This document shows, piece by piece, positions 5,897 to 39,741 of a stretch of DNA of 64,000 nt. Every line of letters starts with the position of its first letter. Position 1 is the stretch's first letter. The position numbers and the translations under genes were made by a program. Below the pieces are notes generated by a model. That model worked only from the letters and a program-made list of their open reading frames with translations, did no database searches and was not told the DNA's origin. Origin of the DNA: a phage. The stretch is from the sequence record PZ452584.1; one strand, written 5' to 3'.

Positions 5897-6085
5897 TTAG
5901 TCATAATAATCAGTAACAGTCCAAGCTTCATTTCTATTGGACATTATTTTTGTATATTCTGCTTTAAATGCATTCCTAAGCATAGATTCAGTAACTATAT
6001 GCTCTTCATTAGAAAAATTATTTCTCAGAATATATCGTTTTATTTCAGGAATAGTTAATAGATGCTGTCCAGTTGAATATTCCAT
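5897..6085 (-). CDS. small hypothetical protein (T4 45.2 position)
   Basis: 62-aa ORF between 46 and rpbA. Confidence 0.55.
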   Translation of the reverse strand: MEYSTGQHLLTIPEIKRYILRNNFSNEEHIVTESMLRNAFKAEYTKIMSNRNEAWTVTDYYD

Positions 6086-6140
6086 GTTTTTCCTCCATAG
6101 AGATTATACTCTAATAAATTAAAGCATAATCTCTTATAAA

Positions 6141-7823
6141 TTAAACCATTACAGTAAATCGACCAACTTTCTTCATTTGAAGATGCTGACCATATTCTTG
6201 CGGGTCATGGTCTTTATGCGAAATTATAAAAACATTAGTGTTTTTCATTGAATTTATAATATTAGCTACACCTTTAATACCTTCGGCATCAAATGACCCG
6301 TCAAACACTTCATCAAGAATTAATGTACTAATACTAACACCAGATACGATAGAAGCAATATCACGCCAAGTAAATAAAAGAGCAATATCAATTCGTGCCT
6401 TTTCACCTTCACTAAATGAAGCATAACTAAAATCTTCACGACCACGGGATTTAATTGTCTCATTAAATTCTTCATCTAATGTAAACACATAATCCGCTTC
6501 CATTATTTTAAGATAATGGTTAATCTGCTTATTAAATAATGGAATGTACTTTTTAATAATAGCACCTTTAATACCAGAATCTTTGAGCATATCAGTCAAA
6601 ATTCCTCGGTGGTATTTTTCCATTACTAAATTAGTTTTTGTCTTAACAATTTTATCAAGTTCTTCTTGAAGCAGTGCTATTTCATCAGCATGGTCAATAA
6701 ACTCAGAAGATGCTTTTTCTATAGCTGCTTTAACTTTTTTAGCTTTATCTACCGTCGTGATTAGAGATTGCTTTTTATTGCGAATATCATTTGCCAACGA
6801 CTGCTGGGTTTTAATATTATCTCGGTATTCATCAACAAGAACTTTTAAATTATCACGATGTGTTGAAAGCTGTTCAAACGAATGCGTACATTCAGAAACT
6901 TTATCTTTAATTTTAGAAACAACTTTATCACCGGAACTTAATTGTGACAGACAGGTTGGACATAATCCGCCTTCGTGATACATATTAATGACTTTATTAT
7001 ACGAGTCAATTTTTGATTTAATTAAAACTGCTTCTTGACCGATTTTATTAAATGCATCAGTCGGGTCTTCATCCAAAACAATATTAACTAATCTTTCATT
7101 AGCTTCTTCTATTTCCGATTTTAGCGTTCTAGCTTCTTTTGCCAAATCATCATACATATTTTGCAGACGAGTAAGATTGTCACCCGTTAATTTTTTCTGG
7201 CGTTCAACGTTATCATTATATATTTTAATTTGTTGGATAATACTATCTTTTTTAACATCAAGCACTTGGTTTTGTGAATTTAATTCACGTATTAGTGCTT
7301 TATTAAGCTTATCCATTTCAGCTAATGTTCCTACCTCAAGCAGGTCTTCCACAAGCTTTCTTCGTGCAGGGGTCGACAAACCCATGAAAGGGGTATACCC
7401 TGCTGTACCAAGGACAACAATCTGCTTGAAACTGGCATATGACATTCCGATAAGCTGTTCAAATTCTGCTTGGAAATCTTTACTGCTGGCAGATTCATTA
7501 AGACGTGTACCGTTAACGGTGATTTCGAAAACGTTTGGTTTTTGTCCTCTTTTGATATAGTACTTTTTCTCATCATATTCCATCCACAGTTCAACTAAAA
7601 GTTCTTTCTTATTTGTGCTGTTTATTAATTGACCTTTCTTTACATCACGAAATGGCTTGCCAAAAAGCCCAAATGTGATGGCTTCTAACATAGTAGACTT
7701 ACCACCGCCATTTCGTCCAGTAATAAGAGTTTTTTGAACCTTATCTAATTGAATGTCAACTCCATTTTGACCAACTGACATTATATTTTTATATTTTACT
7801 CTATTAAGTTTAAATGATTTCAT
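6141..7823 (-). CDS. 46: recombination endonuclease subunit gp46 (Rad50/SbcC-like ATPase)
   Basis: 560 aa; Walker A GRNGGGKST near N-terminus, coiled-coil middle, CPTC zinc hook, C-terminal ABC signature/Walker B region (LILDEVFDGSFD). Confidence 0.92.
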   Translation of the reverse strand: MKSFKLNRVKYKNIMSVGQNGVDIQLDKVQKTLITGRNGGGKSTMLEAITFGLFGKPFRDVKKGQLINSTNKKELLVELWMEYDEKKYYIKRGQKPNVFEITVNGTRLNESASSKDFQAEFEQLIGMSYASFKQIVVLGTAGYTPFMGLSTPARRKLVEDLLEVGTLAEMDKLNKALIRELNSQNQVLDVKKDSIIQQIKIYNDNVERQKKLTGDNLTRLQNMYDDLAKEARTLKSEIEEANERLVNIVLDEDPTDAFNKIGQEAVLIKSKIDSYNKVINMYHEGGLCPTCLSQLSSGDKVVSKIKDKVSECTHSFEQLSTHRDNLKVLVDEYRDNIKTQQSLANDIRNKKQSLITTVDKAKKVKAAIEKASSEFIDHADEIALLQEELDKIVKTKTNLVMEKYHRGILTDMLKDSGIKGAIIKKYIPLFNKQINHYLKIMEADYVFTLDEEFNETIKSRGREDFSYASFSEGEKARIDIALLFTWRDIASIVSGVSISTLILDEVFDGSFDAEGIKGVANIINSMKNTNVFIISHKDHDPQEYGQHLQMKKVGRFTVMV

Positions 7824-7838
7824 TTTGTATCCAATTGT

Positions 7839-8693
7839 TCACAATGAAGAAAATTCTTTAACTAAAGCCTGTAATGAAGCCTCTATTGGATATCCATTCT
7901 TAACTAACATTTTCCTAAACATCACATGTTTAGGACGATTATATGATATCCACAATTCATACAATTTATCTTTATTATCCCAATGATAGCCTTTTCGTCG
8001 AGATGCTATATGAGCTTTTCTAATCTCCGGATTTTTCCAACTAGCAGCTACTGAATTTGATATAGCTATTTTATATTCAGGTTTTGATAAAGCAGCACGA
8101 ACAGCCTTTTGGTGTTTAATTTTATTTTCTTCGTTATTAAACCATTCCCTTGAAGCCATTGAAATTTTTTGTTTTGTTTTAAAATTATTTAATCTTTCTT
8201 TGTTATCTTTCCTATTTTTTGCTACTGAAAAATATTTTAATGCCCTTTCTCTAGCAGCATTTCTATTTTGCGGATTTGAATAATATTGTTGAAGCCTTTT
8301 TGATATTGTGTCACTTACATCTTGTTTTATAAAACTATATTCAGCAGCTATTAAATCAACTTCGGCTAAAGATAAATTTTTATATGTTTTTCCTGACATC
8401 ATTCTATTTAAAGCATTTAGCATTTTTCCATTTTTACCTTTTGCTAATAAGAAATGTGCTTTAAAATGATTAAAATGACTTAAATTAACTAAATTCCATG
8501 TAGATTTTAAATATTCAGGAAATATTGATTTAGGAAGCACGTGATGTGCTTCCGTTTTACCTGGAGTTTTAACAGTTGAATTCATAGAAATAAAATTAAT
8601 GTAAGACTTGGCGTCTTCTTCACTCAACGCTAATTTTTCAACTAATTCCTTTATTAAAAATTCATCATTAATGTCAAGTTTAAAATTCTTCAC
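7839..8693 (-). mobile_element. free-standing HNH homing endonuclease gene (Mob-like), GTG start
   Basis: 284-aa ORF with HNH core KTEAHHVLPKSIFPEY...NLVNLSHFNHFKAH; about 47 bp near-identical DNA to the mobC-like gene (8511-8557 vs 17030-17077); inserted between 46 and the 46.1-like ORF. Confidence 0.75.
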
Positions 8694-8905
8694 AAAAGAT
8701 TCCTTTTAATGTATCTTTTAGACCATTCTATCATATCATCATAATCTAAAAAGTATTCATCAAATTCAGCCATGCAAACAACGCCTTGTGCTGCTTTTGA
8801 TGTGATATAAATTATTCCAACATATCTAGAATCTTCTTCGGTATAATCAATGTTTGCTATGAATTCATCATTGATGTCAAATGTCGAAAACTTCACAGTA
8901 TGCAT
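8690..8905 (-). CDS. hypothetical protein (46.1-like position)
   Basis: ATG 8903-8905; N-terminus MHTVKFSTFDINDEF resembles N-terminus of adjacent HNH ORF; stop overlaps HNH GTG start (GTGA). Confidence 0.45.
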   Translation of the reverse strand: MHTVKFSTFDINDEFIANIDYTEEDSRYVGIIYITSKAAQGVVCMAEFDEYFLDYDDMIEWSKRYIKRNLL

Positions 8906-9140
8906 CCTTAATACAAGATACAGCCATATCTCGTAATGATTTAGGTGTGTCATTATCTAAAATGTTGAAGTTAAAAGATACAGCCCAGTCAGTGCAGACC
9001 GTAACCTTTTTAATACAATTATCTTCAACCTCTAGCGGTTCAAACCAATATTCAATAATTTCTTTATGCCCAATATCATCTTTTACTTCGCATTCAAAAT
9101 GCTGACTCATCATAACATTTTTAAATTCATCAAAAGTCAT
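8877..9140 (-). CDS. hypothetical protein (46.2-like position)
   Basis: 87-aa ORF; ATG 9138-9140 overlaps gp47 stop (ATGA). Confidence 0.45.
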   Translation of the reverse strand: MTFDEFKNVMMSQHFECEVKDDIGHKEIIEYWFEPLEVEDNCIKKVTVCTDWAVSFNFNILDNDTPKSLRDMAVSCIKDAYCEVFDI

Positions 9141-10156
9141 TGTGTTGCCTCTACATATAACTGATTTGCATATTGAATAAGTGCTTCACGGTCAGAATCA
9201 GTGATGTCTGGAATTGCATTAATGTATTCTTCCATCAACGTCTGAAGAGATTGAACTTCAACTTCTTCACTGTCATCTGACTCGACAGAGTTATCAATCT
9301 TTGACACAACTCGTAATGAATGCACAACTTTTTCTAGTTCAGATTCGAACTTCGTCAGATTTTTGTCTACTTCAGTTACTATAACACGTACTGATAGATT
9401 TGTAAAATCTTTATAGTCAATTTTTCCTTTAAATGGATAATGAATTCTACGATGCCAGGTAGTATTGTTTGGAATAAATTCCATTCGTTCTGTTTCTGTA
9501 TCAAACATCCAGAACCCGCGAGGGTCATTCTCGTCACCTGCAGTTAGTGTCCATGGTGTCCCAATATATCTGACGTTAGCAGCCTCAGAGATAGTATGGA
9601 AGTGACCAGACCACACCTCTTTATAAGTCTTAAGGAAATCAGGTTCAAGACCATGAGATTTCATTCCTTTATAAAAATAAAATCCATTCAGTTCCCAGTG
9701 ACCAACACAAAAAGAAGCAGAAGAAGTTTTTATGTGCTCGAGAATTTCACCAGTATTTTCTTCACACATCCAAGGAATTAAATCAATTAAACATCCGTCA
9801 AAATCTACTGTAGTAGGCTTATCATATACTTTAACATTAGGATATTTAGCCAAAAGCTCAGTAGAGGCATTTGGATGCATTACATTTTTGTAGTGGAGAT
9901 CGTGATTTCCTACAATAGTATGTAATGTGATTCCAGCGTCATCAAGCATTTGAACTATTTCACGGGCAAACTCCATAGTTTTATGTGTGATTGCTTTTCG
10001 CACATCAAAAATATCACCATATTGAATCCATACAGTAATTCCATTTTTCTTAGAATATTCTATCGCTTGCTTAATTCCATCAATTTGAATACCGCGAATC
10101 CACTCATCATCAGCTTTAACGCCTAAATGCCAATCACCCGAGTTTAGTATTTTCAT
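9137..10156 (-). CDS. 47: recombination endonuclease subunit gp47 (Mre11/SbcD-like phosphoesterase)
   Basis: 339 aa, starts MKILNSGDWHLG, metallophosphatase motifs (GDIFD, GNHD). Confidence 0.92.
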   Translation of the reverse strand: MKILNSGDWHLGVKADDEWIRGIQIDGIKQAIEYSKKNGITVWIQYGDIFDVRKAITHKTMEFAREIVQMLDDAGITLHTIVGNHDLHYKNVMHPNASTELLAKYPNVKVYDKPTTVDFDGCLIDLIPWMCEENTGEILEHIKTSSASFCVGHWELNGFYFYKGMKSHGLEPDFLKTYKEVWSGHFHTISEAANVRYIGTPWTLTAGDENDPRGFWMFDTETERMEFIPNNTTWHRRIHYPFKGKIDYKDFTNLSVRVIVTEVDKNLTKFESELEKVVHSLRVVSKIDNSVESDDSEEVEVQSLQTLMEEYINAIPDITDSDREALIQYANQLYVEATQ

Positions 10157-10766
10157 GGTGTCTTTTCCATCCTAATTTAGCTGCTTTTGAAACTAGTTCT
10201 TTAATTTTTCCTTTTGTCCATTCAGGACCAGGAGGTTCATGACATAACATTTGCTTAACTCCGTTATTATACCATTTTTTACCTTTATTATGTGATGAAG
10301 CTTTAAATTTATTTGACCTTCCTTTTACATAACCTTCTGGAATATAAGGCAAAAAGGCAGATTTTCCTGTTAATGGATCATGTGAATGTATATTTCCTTT
10401 ACAATTATGAGAACCATATAATGGATGATTTTGTCCTTTATTATCTCTTCCAAATGAACCTTTTGGAGCAGCATATGACATATTAAAGAATAATGGATTT
10501 TTAACTGCATCATGCAATCGTTGATAATATAACTCGCATTTAATAGCTTCTTCACGCGTATCAAATTCAGCTAAAATGCATGAATCAAATAAGTGAGGAT
10601 TATCTGAAAGCTCTTTATTATAAATTTTCTTATACTTTTTAGATAAAACTGAACCATGATATCCAGCTAAATGCCTATCTAAAGACGTAGATCCAATATA
10701 AAAAGGAGGAAGTTTATCTCCACTATATATATTGTTAAATAAGTTATATATTTTTTCATATATCAA
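10134..10766 (-). mobile_element. putative GIY-YIG (Seg-like) homing endonuclease-like ORF
   Basis: 210 aa; N-terminus KIYNLFNNIYSGDKLPPFYIGSTSLDRH fits GIY-x10-YIG-R pattern, similar layout to SegB in this window; overlaps gp47 start by 23 nt. Confidence 0.45.
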
Positions 10767-10922
10767 GAACCGTCATTGAAATGCAAAATAAAATTATTGA
10801 AATAAACCCATCTGGTGTGCTAAAGAACCCAATCCAACATGCTTTAGTGAATAGATAAAATGCAAGAAAAAGTATCACATATCCAAGAAATATCATTATA
10901 TCAAACTCCGTATAAAGCTAAA

Positions 10923-10934
10923 GGGCCGAAGCCC
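10923..10934 (-). terminator. C(UUCG)G tetraloop hairpin after a-gt
   Basis: GGGC-UUCG-GCCC immediately 3' of a-gt stop. Confidence 0.45.
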
Positions 10935-10935
10935 T

Positions 10936-12138
10936 TTATTTTGTAATAATGTCAAACTGTTCTTTAAAGCAGAAGCTTGAATCTTGATGCTGATACAAAA
11001 ATTCATAAGCTTTTTCACGTTCACGGTCATAAAGAGCTCGGTCAGATGACAGTTCTTTAATACGTTCAAATGTTGATTCCATGTCATTTTCATCAAACCA
11101 AACGATACCGCTATCATGTGAAATTAACGGAGTATTATCAACACGGAATTTTAAATTTTCGCCAGTAGATTTCCAAAATACCGGAATTGTTCCACATGCA
11201 CCAAGCTCGAGATGAGTATATTCTAAAGAACGTTGTAGATATTTTTTATCCAACTTACTCAACTGATAACCAAAACCGGATTTACTCATACGTTCAAGCA
11301 TTTCGCTATTTACATAACGGTCAAGAATTTGCGTTGGTAAATTAGGAGCAATTTTAATTTGGTCTACTTGATGAAGACGATAATACTCGTATGGAATTCC
11401 TTTTTCTTTAATAGGAATGAACGCTGGAGAACGTTCCAGACCTTCCATAATAGTACTTAGTCCTGCAGGTTTAAGATGTTTTTCGTGAAAATCAAACATC
11501 TGATAAAAACCTTTCCATGTAGTCGTACGACCAATCCAACGGTTGATATTCATGTTAATTTCAGAAACATCTTTCCAGTAGGTTGATCGAACCTTCGCAA
11601 TATCCATAGGAGGCTGAAAGTTGTATACGGTCGGTGCTTCTTCAATGTCATCAAACAGAGAAACTGTTTCAGGATACCATTCTTTCATCAGAACTTTATT
11701 AAAATCGCCATTATCAGAATGACTAAAAATAACATCAGCTCGACGAACAGTTTCTTCTAATCCCAAATTTCGACGCAAAGAAAGAGAAGAATGGTCATGC
11801 TGATAAACTACAACACGAACCGAAGGTTTAATGTTATCAATAATTTTTTTATAGTTATTAATAGTGTCTTCTTCAACTGAAGTAGCAGGAACTGAATTGA
11901 TAATTAGAATATCACAATCATTTACCAGCTTAAGTGTTTTATCGTATTCTTTTGCCAATAAAACCGGAATTGAAAATGATTTATAATCATGTGCACAGTT
12001 ACGAGTAAATGATTTATCTTTAGCATAAACCAAAGTTACTTCATGACCATTTTTAATAAACCAATCACGTTGCTCAAGAGAAAATTTAGTTACACCACAA
12101 CCTTCAAGACCTCGAGCCATAAAAATACATACTTTCAT
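10936..12138 (-). CDS. a-gt: DNA alpha-glucosyltransferase
   Basis: 400 aa, MKVCIFMARGLEGCGVTKFSLEQRDWFIKNGHEVTLVYAKDKSF..., matches T4 AGT as recalled. Confidence 0.95.
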   Translation of the reverse strand: MKVCIFMARGLEGCGVTKFSLEQRDWFIKNGHEVTLVYAKDKSFTRNCAHDYKSFSIPVLLAKEYDKTLKLVNDCDILIINSVPATSVEEDTINNYKKIIDNIKPSVRVVVYQHDHSSLSLRRNLGLEETVRRADVIFSHSDNGDFNKVLMKEWYPETVSLFDDIEEAPTVYNFQPPMDIAKVRSTYWKDVSEINMNINRWIGRTTTWKGFYQMFDFHEKHLKPAGLSTIMEGLERSPAFIPIKEKGIPYEYYRLHQVDQIKIAPNLPTQILDRYVNSEMLERMSKSGFGYQLSKLDKKYLQRSLEYTHLELGACGTIPVFWKSTGENLKFRVDNTPLISHDSGIVWFDENDMESTFERIKELSSDRALYDREREKAYEFLYQHQDSSFCFKEQFDIITK

Positions 12139-15915: not shown

Positions 15916-16386
15916 TTAATCATGTTTCCACACCCCATCGGTATTTGACCAAAGTCGCTGATTATCTGATCCTCGCCACAGCTTTTTGGTCGGAAGATTT
16001 TTCTCATACTTCCCATCAATAATAACATCAACATATTTAAGCATTTCTAGTTGTTTAATATCTTCAAACTTATATCCTGTCCACAACCAAATGCTTTTAT
16101 TGGGATAAAGATTTTTTACTGTTTGAACAATGCAATGAATAACATCTCGATTGTCAGGATAAAGAGGGTCACCTCCGGTTATAGTTAATCCTTCTATATA
16201 ATCATTATTCAAACATTCAATTAATTGTTCTAGTGTTTCACCAGTGAATGGAATACCATTTCTAGCATTCCATGTTGATTTATTATAACACCCTTCGCAT
16301 TTATGCAAACAACCTGTAACGAAAAGAACTGTCCTGCATCCAGGACCATTAACAAAGCAGCACGGGTATATTCTGTCATAATTCAT
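15916..16386 (-). CDS. nrdG: anaerobic ribonucleotide reductase activase NrdG (radical SAM)
   Basis: 156 aa; CLHKCEGC radical-SAM cysteine motif; follows nrdD. Confidence 0.9.
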   Translation of the reverse strand: MNYDRIYPCCFVNGPGCRTVLFVTGCLHKCEGCYNKSTWNARNGIPFTGETLEQLIECLNNDYIEGLTITGGDPLYPDNRDVIHCIVQTVKNLYPNKSIWLWTGYKFEDIKQLEMLKYVDVIIDGKYEKNLPTKKLWRGSDNQRLWSNTDGVWKHD

Positions 16387-17215
16387 TTATATATTTCCAA
16401 TTATAGCCTTCAACACTTTTACGTTCGCCATTTAAACATTTTAAAATATTTCCTTTGCTAGAAATATTAAAATATTTTGCTGCGTCTGGTATATAATTAA
16501 ATGTTTTTAAAAGAACACCATCTTTATATGCGCCAAATAAATTAAGAGTATATTTTTCTCGAAGACGCTGATGTTTCCTTTTCATAACCTCAGGATTTGC
16601 ATACGCCAACTTCAATGAATTTCTGTGTTTTTCTTTTACTTCAGGTTTTTGCATTGCTAACTTAGTTAGCCTGGAAATTTTATTTCTAACTTCGTCAGTT
16701 TTCATTGCATTTGACAAATTTAATAAAGTTTTATTTCTAACTTCAGGTTTTTGCATTGCTAACTTAGTTAGTTCTCTATGTCTTTTTCTAAAATCGTCAT
16801 CCTTCCATATATTTTTCGATAATTTTGACATAGAGCGGTGAAATAATTCCTTTTCACTGGAATACAATTTAAAAATTTCATCCAATTCATCCGCATTAAA
16901 TCTATCGGTATTCGAGTTTATCATTCTATGAAAGGCATAACACATTTTACTATTGCTTGTTTTAGCTAAATAGTAATGAGCTAACGCATGGTCATAATAT
17001 GACAAATTAACAATATTCCATTTATCTGTTTTATATTCAGGAAATATAGATTTGGGAAGCACGTGATGTGCTTCCGTTTTTCCTTTTATTTTAGGATTAT
17101 TATAATTTTTTGTTATCAAATCAACATATGACAATAGTAAATCATTATTTTCTTCAAATATTAAAGCTAATTTATCATTCACAAAATCGCAAGGATAAAA
17201 TCTATCATAATTCAT
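16376..17215 (-). mobile_element. mobC: HNH homing endonuclease (MobC-like) inserted between nrdD and nrdG
   Basis: 279 aa with KTEAHHVLPKSIFPEY...NLSYYDHALAH HNH core; first 14 codons MNYDRFYPCDFVND copy the nrdG N-terminus; start overlaps nrdD stop (ATGA), stop overlaps nrdG start. Confidence 0.8.
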
Positions 17216-38800: not shown

Positions 38801-39103
38801 TTATTTACCTTTAATTACTTTAGCTGCTTCGATAGCCGCTTGCTGAAGGTCATCCATAGACATACCGAATTTAGAAGCAAAGTTATCAATTTTCTTTTCG
38901 ACAGCATTCAAAGGCTTGGCCTGTTTACCTTCATTAGCGCCAGGAAGAGCGAGAATACGCTCTTTGTCAATATAAAGGCTTACAAGTTTCTTACGGTCTT
39001 TATCGGACAAATCATGAAATGAATGGGCCTTTTTATTTATAGCGGCTTCTAATTTACCTGCACTCACTCGCGCTTCAGTAATAAATTCTTGATATGTTTT
39101 CAT
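38801..39103 (-). CDS. ipII: internal protein IPII-like (capsid-targeted)
   Basis: 100 aa, N-terminal capsid-targeting sequence MKTYQEFITEA. Confidence 0.75.
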   Translation of the reverse strand: MKTYQEFITEARVSAGKLEAAINKKAHSFHDLSDKDRKKLVSLYIDKERILALPGANEGKQAKPLNAVEKKIDNFASKFGMSMDDLQQAAIEAAKVIKGK

Positions 39104-39144: not shown

Positions 39145-39741
39145 TTAGGAATTACGGGCTGCATTAGCAACGGCGTAAGCGTACTGAACATTAGCGTCTT
39201 TAAACTTACCTTTAGAGGTATCTATTTCTGCCTTAAAGCCACCTTTAGTCATAACATCGGCAAATTCTTTACGGAAAGCCATTGCATCAAGACCTTTCCA
39301 TGATGATTTATGCTTGGCAAATTCAAGACCTGCGAAGTTGACAGCTTTAGCCAATTTATTATCAATGACCCATTTACCGGCTTTAGGCACAAACTTCGGG
39401 CCTTTCTGTTTAGAGAACAGTTTTAAATTCCAGCGGCGAAGGTCACTGTCGGCTTTAACAAAAGCTGCGTCTAAGTTACTAGCAACAACATCTTCAATAT
39501 GAGCAAATTTAAGTCCGTCAACTTCAATATTTAAATCGGTACGCCAGCGAAGTCCTTCCCAAGCGAAGGCTTTAAAGTCGGAAGCCTTTGTAGCTAAGTA
39601 CCGTTCAATAGGAGCTGTTTTAGGGTCAAAGCCGTTTCCTGGGCGGTCAACACCATTTCCTCGGTAGGTCCACTCATCTTTGTTAATGCCTTTGGCCTTT
39701 ACTACAGAAGCTTCGGCAATAAATTCTTGATATGTTTTCAT
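39145..39741 (-). CDS. ipIII: internal protein IPIII-like (capsid-targeted)
   Basis: 198 aa, N-terminal MKTYQEFIAEA capsid-targeting sequence. Confidence 0.75.
   Translation of the reverse strand: MKTYQEFIAEASVVKAKGINKDEWTYRGNGVDRPGNGFDPKTAPIERYLATKASDFKAFAWEGLRWRTDLNIEVDGLKFAHIEDVVASNLDAAFVKADSDLRRWNLKLFSKQKGPKFVPKAGKWVIDNKLAKAVNFAGLEFAKHKSSWKGLDAMAFRKEFADVMTKGGFKAEIDTSKGKFKDANVQYAYAVANAARNS

Follow-up and report, generated by a model that had tools for sequence, protein, structure and literature searches.

How could an additional gene come to lie at the very beginning of gene 46, in a tight operon of a T4-like phage, and leave gene 46 readable? The question is raised by a genome segment of a Tequatrovirus (PZ452584.1), of which a stretch of 64,000 nt, hereafter the window, was analysed. 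Between genes 46.1 and 46 the window carries an open reading frame (ORF) for an HNH endonuclease, and all the genes of the locus are on the minus strand. We consider it very probable that this ORF is a free-standing Mob-type HNH homing endonuclease gene (HEG), located on an 870-bp cassette between codons 6 and 7 of the Tequatrovirus gene 46, with a history of homing and of start captures that its first codons would still record. It is designated below as the first HEG (7839-8693, minus strand), the related gene at 16376-17215 on the same strand being the second HNH gene. The features on which the argument is built are the following.

7806-8675, minus strand: 870-bp insertion relative to the T4 empty site, its boundary being ambiguous within the 9-bp direct repeat TTTAAACTT
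7839-8693, minus strand: Mob-type HNH homing endonuclease ORF, 284 amino acids, GTG start (PHROG 655, HNH residues)
8676-8693, minus strand: captured native gene 46 start GTGAAGAATTTTAAACTT (MKNFKL), with ribosome-binding region and GTGA overlap, now initiating the HEG
7806-7838, minus strand: replacement gene 46 initiation region, made of the spacer ACAATTGGATACAAA and ATGAAATCATTTAAACTT (MKSFKL)
6141-7823, minus strand: gene 46, Rad50/SbcC-like recombination nuclease subunit, intact, beginning at the replacement ATG (annotation of the hit records)
8690-8896, minus strand: gene 46.1, DUF5487 (Pfam, E=2e-49), start as in the T4 annotation

An endonuclease gene within the start of gene 46

Region 7500-9400 of the window, used as a megablast query, matched 519 phage records; the counts given below include GenBank/RefSeq duplicates and refer to records, not to independent genomes. 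Five loci with the gene (HEG+: the window, RB68, T2, T6 and BEU50) and three T4-type HEG-less loci (T4, PYPS2T and ESh25) were aligned. By comparison with T4 (AF158101), in which the site is empty, the window showed an 870-bp insertion between codons 6 and 7 of gene 46. The same insert, of 868-870 bp, was found in RB68, T2, T6 and BEU50, with identical junctions in the five loci. A perfect 9-bp direct repeat, TTTAAACTT, was located at 8684-8676 and 7814-7806.

The T4 gene 46, whose GTG start is annotated in M10160, reads GTGAAGAATTTTAAACTT followed by AATAGAG, whereas in the window GTGAAGAATTTTAAACTT runs directly into GACATTAATG, which belongs to the HEG. The first 18 nt of the HEG were identical to the native T4 gene 46 start (18/18), and the identity across the junction covered 26 nt out of 26. 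Judged from this alignment, the HEG frame opens with the ribosome-binding region, the GTG and the first six codons of gene 46. The predicted overlap of the GTG start with the stop of the upstream ORF was confirmed: a GTGA overlap joins it to the TGA stop of 46.1, and the HEG is thus positioned for translational coupling. A sigma-70 promoter scan gave no more hits than the shuffled expectation.

Gene 46 resumes in the window as ACAATTGGATACAAA ATGAAATCATTTAAACTT followed by AATAGAG, with a recoded start at 7823-7806. The native and replacement starts form an imperfect 18-bp direct repeat (13/18 identical) with a perfect 9-bp core. Neither the HEG nor gene 46 is disrupted, since gene 46 receives from the cassette's 3' end a new ribosome-binding region, its ATG and a recoded version of codons 1-6. 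Since the replacement start ATGAAATCATTTAAA is identical to the gene 46 start of RB69 (Mosigvirus), the right end of the cassette looks as if it came from a different lineage, and not from a simple target-site duplication. No exact match to the pattern of the replacement start, ATGAAATCATTTAAACTTAATAG, was found in IMG/VR. The original prediction, made from the letters of the window, had proposed entry at a gene start with the local initiation region carried along or duplicated. Both aspects were recovered, with the correction that the region used is that of the downstream gene 46 and not that of 46.1.

The nature of the inserted gene was examined at the protein level. As predicted, the HNH ORF is intact: the frame is open over 284 amino acids and the catalytic motif is kept, residues H50, H51, N67, H76 and H80 (HH...N...H...H) being invariant across seven Mob-like relatives in an alignment with MobC, MobD and the F2, Melville and KM16 HEGs. 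The protein matched PHROG 655 'homing endonuclease' (E=8e-45) and PHROG 12434 'HNH endonuclease' (E=4e-15), and many of the 519 matched records already label the gene 'homing endonuclease'. Identity was about 30% to T4 MobD (over residues 47-281) and 44% to the MobD-like HEGs of F2 and Melville. Pfam and NCBIfam scans returned no family at E<=0.01, and a sequence search of the PDB gave noise only. In an AF2 model built on a six-sequence alignment (overall pLDDT, the predicted local distance difference test, of 56), residues 49-84 were predicted as beta-beta-alpha (strands 49-51 and 69-71, helix 73-84); the pLDDT was 58-87 over the N-terminal 110 residues or so, with 74 and 61 for the blocks in which the two strands lie. 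A Foldseek search of the PDB with this model found nothing with an E value below 0.8.

A scan of 6000-11000 against Rfam (E<=1) detected no group I intron or other family, and for this reason the HEG is considered free-standing and not intron-encoded. The gene ends at a stop codon of its own, 15 nt before the restart of gene 46; together with the Rfam result, this ruled out an intron- or intein-encoded endonuclease. On these sequence comparisons the first HEG is a T4 Mob-type free-standing homing endonuclease, with an N-terminal HNH part, a Mob-like C-terminal region and complete flanking genes.

The 46.1-like codons of the first HEG

A second layer of similarity was observed just inside the captured start.

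8659-8677, minus strand: 46.1-like 19-mer, HEG codons 6-12 (..DINDEF), 18/19 identical to 8880-8862

The HEG 19-mer TTGACATTAATGATGAATT (8677-8659, nt 17-35 of the HEG) matched nt 17-35 of 46.1 (8880-8862) at 18 positions out of 19, the match being 19/19 in T6 and 20/20 in RB68. By chance, about 0.09 matches to a 19-mer would be expected per window when as many as 3 mismatches are allowed. Each pair of neighbouring gene starts on the same strand of the window was also scored over 30 nt. The 46.1/HEG pair reached 23/30, a score found in 2.6e-5 of all start pairs, and ranked after ipIII/ipII (27/30) and before the second HNH gene/nrdG (22/30). The expectation and the start-pair scan together ruled out a chance origin of the 19-mer match, and the predicted N-terminal resemblance is therefore far above chance. 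The upstream ORF had been given a start at 8905 (or at the ATG at 8953); this has to be replaced by the GTG at 8896, the 46.1 start annotated in T4.

In the family alignment, the native N-termini of the relatives fall at about residue 10-12 of the first HEG protein, and residues 1-12 consequently look like additions, codons 1-6 coming from gene 46 and codons 7-12 (DINDEF) from 46.1. DINDEF is native to 46.1, being aligned with EIHRHEF of the RB69 46.1. In F2, the first 22 nt of the HEG (7 codons, MTKTDYE) are those of an RB69-type 46.1 start, which documents the capture of a 46.1 start in this HEG lineage. Most likely the DINDEF layer is the record of an earlier capture of the 46.1 start. We propose that codons 7-12 are the fossil of a stage at which the HEG opened with a captured segment, codons 1-12 of 46.1. 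In the first step, an F2-like state would have existed with the HEG fused to 46.1 codons 1-12. In the second, an in-register unequal crossover between the similar starts of 46.1 and 46 would have left the HEG behind an intact 46.1. The two start regions share the layout AAGGA-N7/8-GTGAAG-N10-TT.

Two other explanations of this layer were weighed. The DINDEF segment could be a short gene-conversion patch between the neighbouring starts, or native HEG sequence, a rather unlikely alternative that deserves to be kept in mind. The KM16 relative begins with MDIN.., the 46.1 and 46 starts are 203 bp apart and both carry AAGGA-N7/8-GTGAAG, and the capture intermediate was not found in the phage collection. 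However, the DIN of KM16 is out of register with that of the first HEG in the family alignment, where native N-termini begin near residue 10-12, the RB69 alignment makes DINDEF native to 46.1, and F2 demonstrates that capture of a 46.1 start occurs. In the original prediction, the whole 5' end of the HEG was a copy of the upstream 46.1 start, duplicated on entry. The identity of 18/19 (up to 20/20) nt in register after GTGAAG, and the rank of this pair as the second strongest adjacent-start similarity in the window, speak for such a copy. This version is nevertheless highly improbable: the first 18 nt, with their upstream context (26/26), are identical to the T4 gene 46 start, the insertion maps inside gene 46 and not 46.1, and only nt 17-35 are 46.1-like. 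As the main explanation it is refuted by the T4 empty-site alignment, and it survives only as the inner layer attributed above to an earlier capture.

Distribution, exchange and putative target

The neighbouring genes and the segments concerned by exchange are listed here.

9137-10156, minus strand: gene 47
8877-9140, minus strand: gene 46.2
7741-8999, minus strand: cross-genus patch, from the 3' part of 46.2 through 46.1 and the HEG to about codon 27 of gene 46
7757-7762, minus strand: GGAGTT, gene 46 codons 21-22 (Gly-Val), HEG-linked candidate immunity change

The insert was present in 72 of the 519 records, which covered the whole query at 90-99% identity. The other records, approximately 447, lacked it and matched in two pieces covering 55% of the query; the comparison of T4-like phages proposed for this site therefore did uncover empty variants. 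The site was occupied or empty among genomes otherwise 97-99% identical. In the Mosigvirus BEU50, a patch of about 1.26 kb (from ~8999 to ~7741) was 97-100% identical to the window, whereas genes 47 and 46 around it were 65-85% identical. The same patch was found in the Mosigvirus NRG-P0074. From this pattern, the HEG crossed into Mosigvirus, taking along about 300 bp of sequence on its left and 65-80 bp on its right, and the BEU50 patch therefore fits a homing-type gene conversion with co-converted flanks. Presence or absence at one fixed site and the cross-genus patch bear out the earlier proposal of a mobile endonuclease gene. Separately, a terminator-like hairpin was noticed in the 3' part of 46.2 (8979-9003, minus strand), at a position coinciding with the left end of the BEU50 patch (~8999).

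Not all copies are intact. The HEG copies of T2, RB51 and RB68 are frameshifted, on inserts of 868 and 869 bp, and are annotated as two ORFs; being 1-2 nt shorter and split, they appear to be decaying. The copies of T6 and of the window are intact.

A possible trace of the target was observed in gene 46, 45 bp downstream of the insert. The sequence GGAGTT was present in the five HEG+ loci (5/5), and GGGATT in T4, PYPS2T and ESh25; all other lineages examined have Ile at this position. A 41-mer containing GGAGTT was found in 75 records and the T4-type 41-mer in 67. Since only 67 records match the latter, the remainder of the ~447 HEG-less records differ from T4 here. The HEG-less Tequatrovirus HY01 (L016) showed a diverged, RB69-like patch restricted to gene 46 codons 6-22, with about 14 substitutions in 50 nt (equivalent to window 7806-7757), its flanks being otherwise ~97% identical. 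This allele may be resistant to cleavage. We propose that, in a co-infection, the enzyme would cut T4-type HEG-less genomes in or near the first 23 or so codons of gene 46, and that recombination repair would then copy the cassette along with the flanking sequence, in the manner of intronless homing. The HEG+ genomes would owe their protection to the insertion, by which the site is split and recoded, and to the linked change of GGGATT to GGAGTT (Ile to Val).

This scenario was set against two other histories of the locus. The HEG arrangement could be ancestral, the T4-type sites having arisen by precise deletion between the TTTAAACTT repeats, with homing lost or never active. Perfect 9-bp repeats do flank the insert, a deletion between them restores the exact T4 sequence, and frameshifted HEG copies exist. 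Such a history is very unlikely, however: gene 46 of distant genera (RB69, Melville and F2) natively begins with MK.FKLNR, without any HEG fusion, the cross-genus patch of BEU50 represents a gain and not a loss, and a foreign type, that of RB69, is seen in the replacement start. It is also conceivable, and in our opinion unlikely, that the HEG is a passive cargo of ordinary phage recombination, or a domesticated nuclease directed against the host or a competitor, without site-specific homing. T4-like phages recombine at high rates, which favours a passive transfer. A review table lists the activity of mobA-D as not determined (PMC2988022), which is also in favour of this reading. Contrary to the expectation for a passive cargo, the conversion tract is short, sharp and centred on the HEG within a background of 65-85% identity, the HEG is tightly linked to the nearby 2-nt variant (GGAGTT), and the diverged HY01 patch over gene 46 codons 6-22 lies beside the insertion site. 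These three features fit an HEG-driven conversion.

The proposal of an active, homing Mob-type HEG with a layered start nevertheless meets several difficulties. Pfam HNH models do not match the HEG protein, and its structure model is poor, the fold search giving no match. The predicted intermediate 46.1(1-12)::HEG (MKFSTFDINDEF-LIKELVEKL after 46.2) was absent from the phage collection, in which all 72 full-length hits were two-piece matches, and from a large protein search, which gave only 5 relatives, none with a 46.1-type N-terminus. The 'immunity' 41-mer is found in 75 records and the HEG in 72, and the linkage may thus be imperfect. The assignment of the putative target depends on linkage in few loci and on record counts that contain GenBank/RefSeq duplicates. 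Finally, the replacement start is the same as that of RB69-type gene 46, and recognition of the Mosigvirus recipient would be puzzling if the start region were the whole target.

Recurrence of the layout and comparison with known systems

Three further features of the window are related to the first HEG.

16376-17215, minus strand: second HNH HEG, at the mobC/segH site, 36% amino-acid identity to the first HEG
10134-10766, minus strand: GIY-YIG (Seg-like) HEG, matching Pfam GIY-YIG below the curated cutoff
8511-8558, minus strand: 48-nt HNH-motif block encoding GKTEAHHVLPKSIFPEY, shared with the second HNH gene

On the evidence of these alignments, start capture with a replacement start is seen three times in the window, at gene 46, nrdG and gene 47. 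The first 39 nt of the second HNH gene (17215-17177) were identical (39/39) to the empty-site nrdG start of phage PE37, and nrdG (15916-16386) opens with a recoded 39-nt copy (16386-16348). A metagenome contig (L019, 2501-3337) carries a relative of the second HNH gene in the same layout, with a diverged, nrdG-like N-terminus of 13 codons. The GIY-YIG HEG is on a 603-bp insert located directly after the gene 47 ATGAAAA (10759-10753), and the new start of gene 47 is at 10156, its codons 3-6 having been recoded (L6S). This insert was present in 66 of 517 records, the sites of T6 and T2 being empty. In NBG2 the captured ATG serves as start codon of the GIY-YIG ORF. The window has one more TA in a (TA)n run, which throws this ATG out of frame, and its long ORF has to begin at a TTG. 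The copy of the window may be disabled.

The two HNH genes had been predicted to be near-identical across the HNH motif, and this was verified: 8558-8511 and 17080-17033 are identical at 46 of 48 positions, as compared to approximately 67% in the remaining alignable stretch. Because the block is so similar despite only 36% overall protein identity, the two paralogues may plausibly have exchanged a short patch by gene conversion; given the identical amino acids, the excess of synonymous identity in the block is only moderate. As for the idea that the two copies are substrates for exchange, the 46/48 block points in that direction, an actual exchange being only suggested. Within both genes a perfect 8-bp GC-rich hairpin, GGAAGCAC-ATCAC-GTGCTTCC, was detected (8553-8533 and 17055-17075), which scores as terminator-like on the antisense (plus) strand. 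It is not a conserved feature of the family, being absent from the Melville, F2, KM16, MobC and MobD genes.

Another pair of similar starts was observed in the window: the ORFs at 39145-39741 and 38801-39103 (minus strand) share 27 of 30 nt after the ATG (MKTYQEFI.EA). We take the shared start at 39741 and 39103 to be the capsid-targeting leader of the internal proteins IPIII/IPII, which is known to make neighbouring gene starts identical and is unrelated to HEGs.

The element is of a known kind and the layout of its integration is apparently undescribed. In the literature searched, no account was found of start capture with a replacement start by free-standing HEGs, nor of an HEG at the 46.1/46 junction; the search did not extend to Sandegren et al. 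2005 on the mobC site, and an earlier mention may exist. Leaning slightly towards doubt, we tentatively propose that T4-like HNH and GIY-YIG HEGs recurrently enter essential operons just past a start codon, taking over the native initiation region and bringing a recoded start. Nested fossil codons would then record the itinerary of the element, and the recoded start and substitutions would mark the cleavage or immunity site. Start capture explains how a selfish gene devoid of promoter and ribosome-binding site can enter a tight, translationally coupled operon with the essential gene unharmed. It also provides a signature for HEG insertions and their targets, namely an ORF with first codons matching the beginning of the following gene; this signature needs context, as the ipIII/ipII capsid-targeting leader looks alike. 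An uncharacterised Mob-family HEG is present at the recombination nuclease genes 46/47, also in the classical phages T2 (frameshifted) and T6 (intact). If it is active, a localised marker exclusion around genes 46-47 is predicted in T6 x T4 crosses, and three alleles could be tested: T4-type (sensitive), HEG+ (immune) and HY01-type (possibly resistant).

T4 MobD resembles the first HEG by about 30% identity over 83% of the length, the same HH..N..H..H motif, a shared C-terminal W..LY.LWI..N.PK...GYP module and a promoter-less cassette oriented like its neighbours. It differs by its locus (nrdC.11/mobD.1) and by having its own start, with no codons in common with the downstream gene. Little is known of the mob endonucleases according to a review, in which the activity of mobA-D is listed as not determined (PMC2988022). 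The closest distinct relatives, at 44% identity, are the MobD-like HEGs of F2 (L007, 1444-2304) and of the Salmonella phage Melville (L006, 1489-2331), which also lie immediately upstream of gene 46. Their 3' ends, however, overlap the gene 46 start by 14 nt without any duplication. The F2 HEG captured an RB69-type 46.1 start and replaced 46.1, whereas that of Melville comes directly after gene 47 with its own start. The site of the second HNH gene, between nrdD and nrdG, is the mobC/segH site (Sandegren et al. 2005, via the review PMC2988022). T4 MobC is found there too, its first 7 codons being in common with nrdG; it is distant in sequence, and the gene of the window has 13 nrdG codons, identical (39/39) to the empty-site allele.

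Intronless homing in T4 by SegF, SegG and MobE is the subject of Belle 2002, Liu 2003 and Wilson & Edgell 2009. These enzymes reportedly cut at a distance from an intergenic insertion. By analogy with them, nucleotide differences close to the site would shield HEG+ genomes. The T4 free-standing seg and mob HEGs, with intronless homing, co-conversion and marker exclusion, are well described (PMC2988022, PMC2790892), and overlaps of HEGs with upstream genes as well as HEG-embedded promoters have been reviewed (PMC2988022). As in the intronless homing of SegF, SegG and MobE (PMC2790892, PMC2988022), the first HEG is free-standing, lies beside a conserved DNA-metabolism gene and shows co-conversion of its flanks. 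The difference is that here the cassette lies within the coding start of the putative target gene and a replacement start compensates for it. The mobE of the Aeromonas phage Aeh1 is said by Friedrich et al. to split nrdA, leaving 'genes in pieces'. Like the first HEG, it is an HNH HEG within a coding sequence, the function of the host gene being kept (PMC3045599). There, the host protein is reportedly made of two polypeptides that reassemble, whereas here it remains whole through the duplicated first codons.

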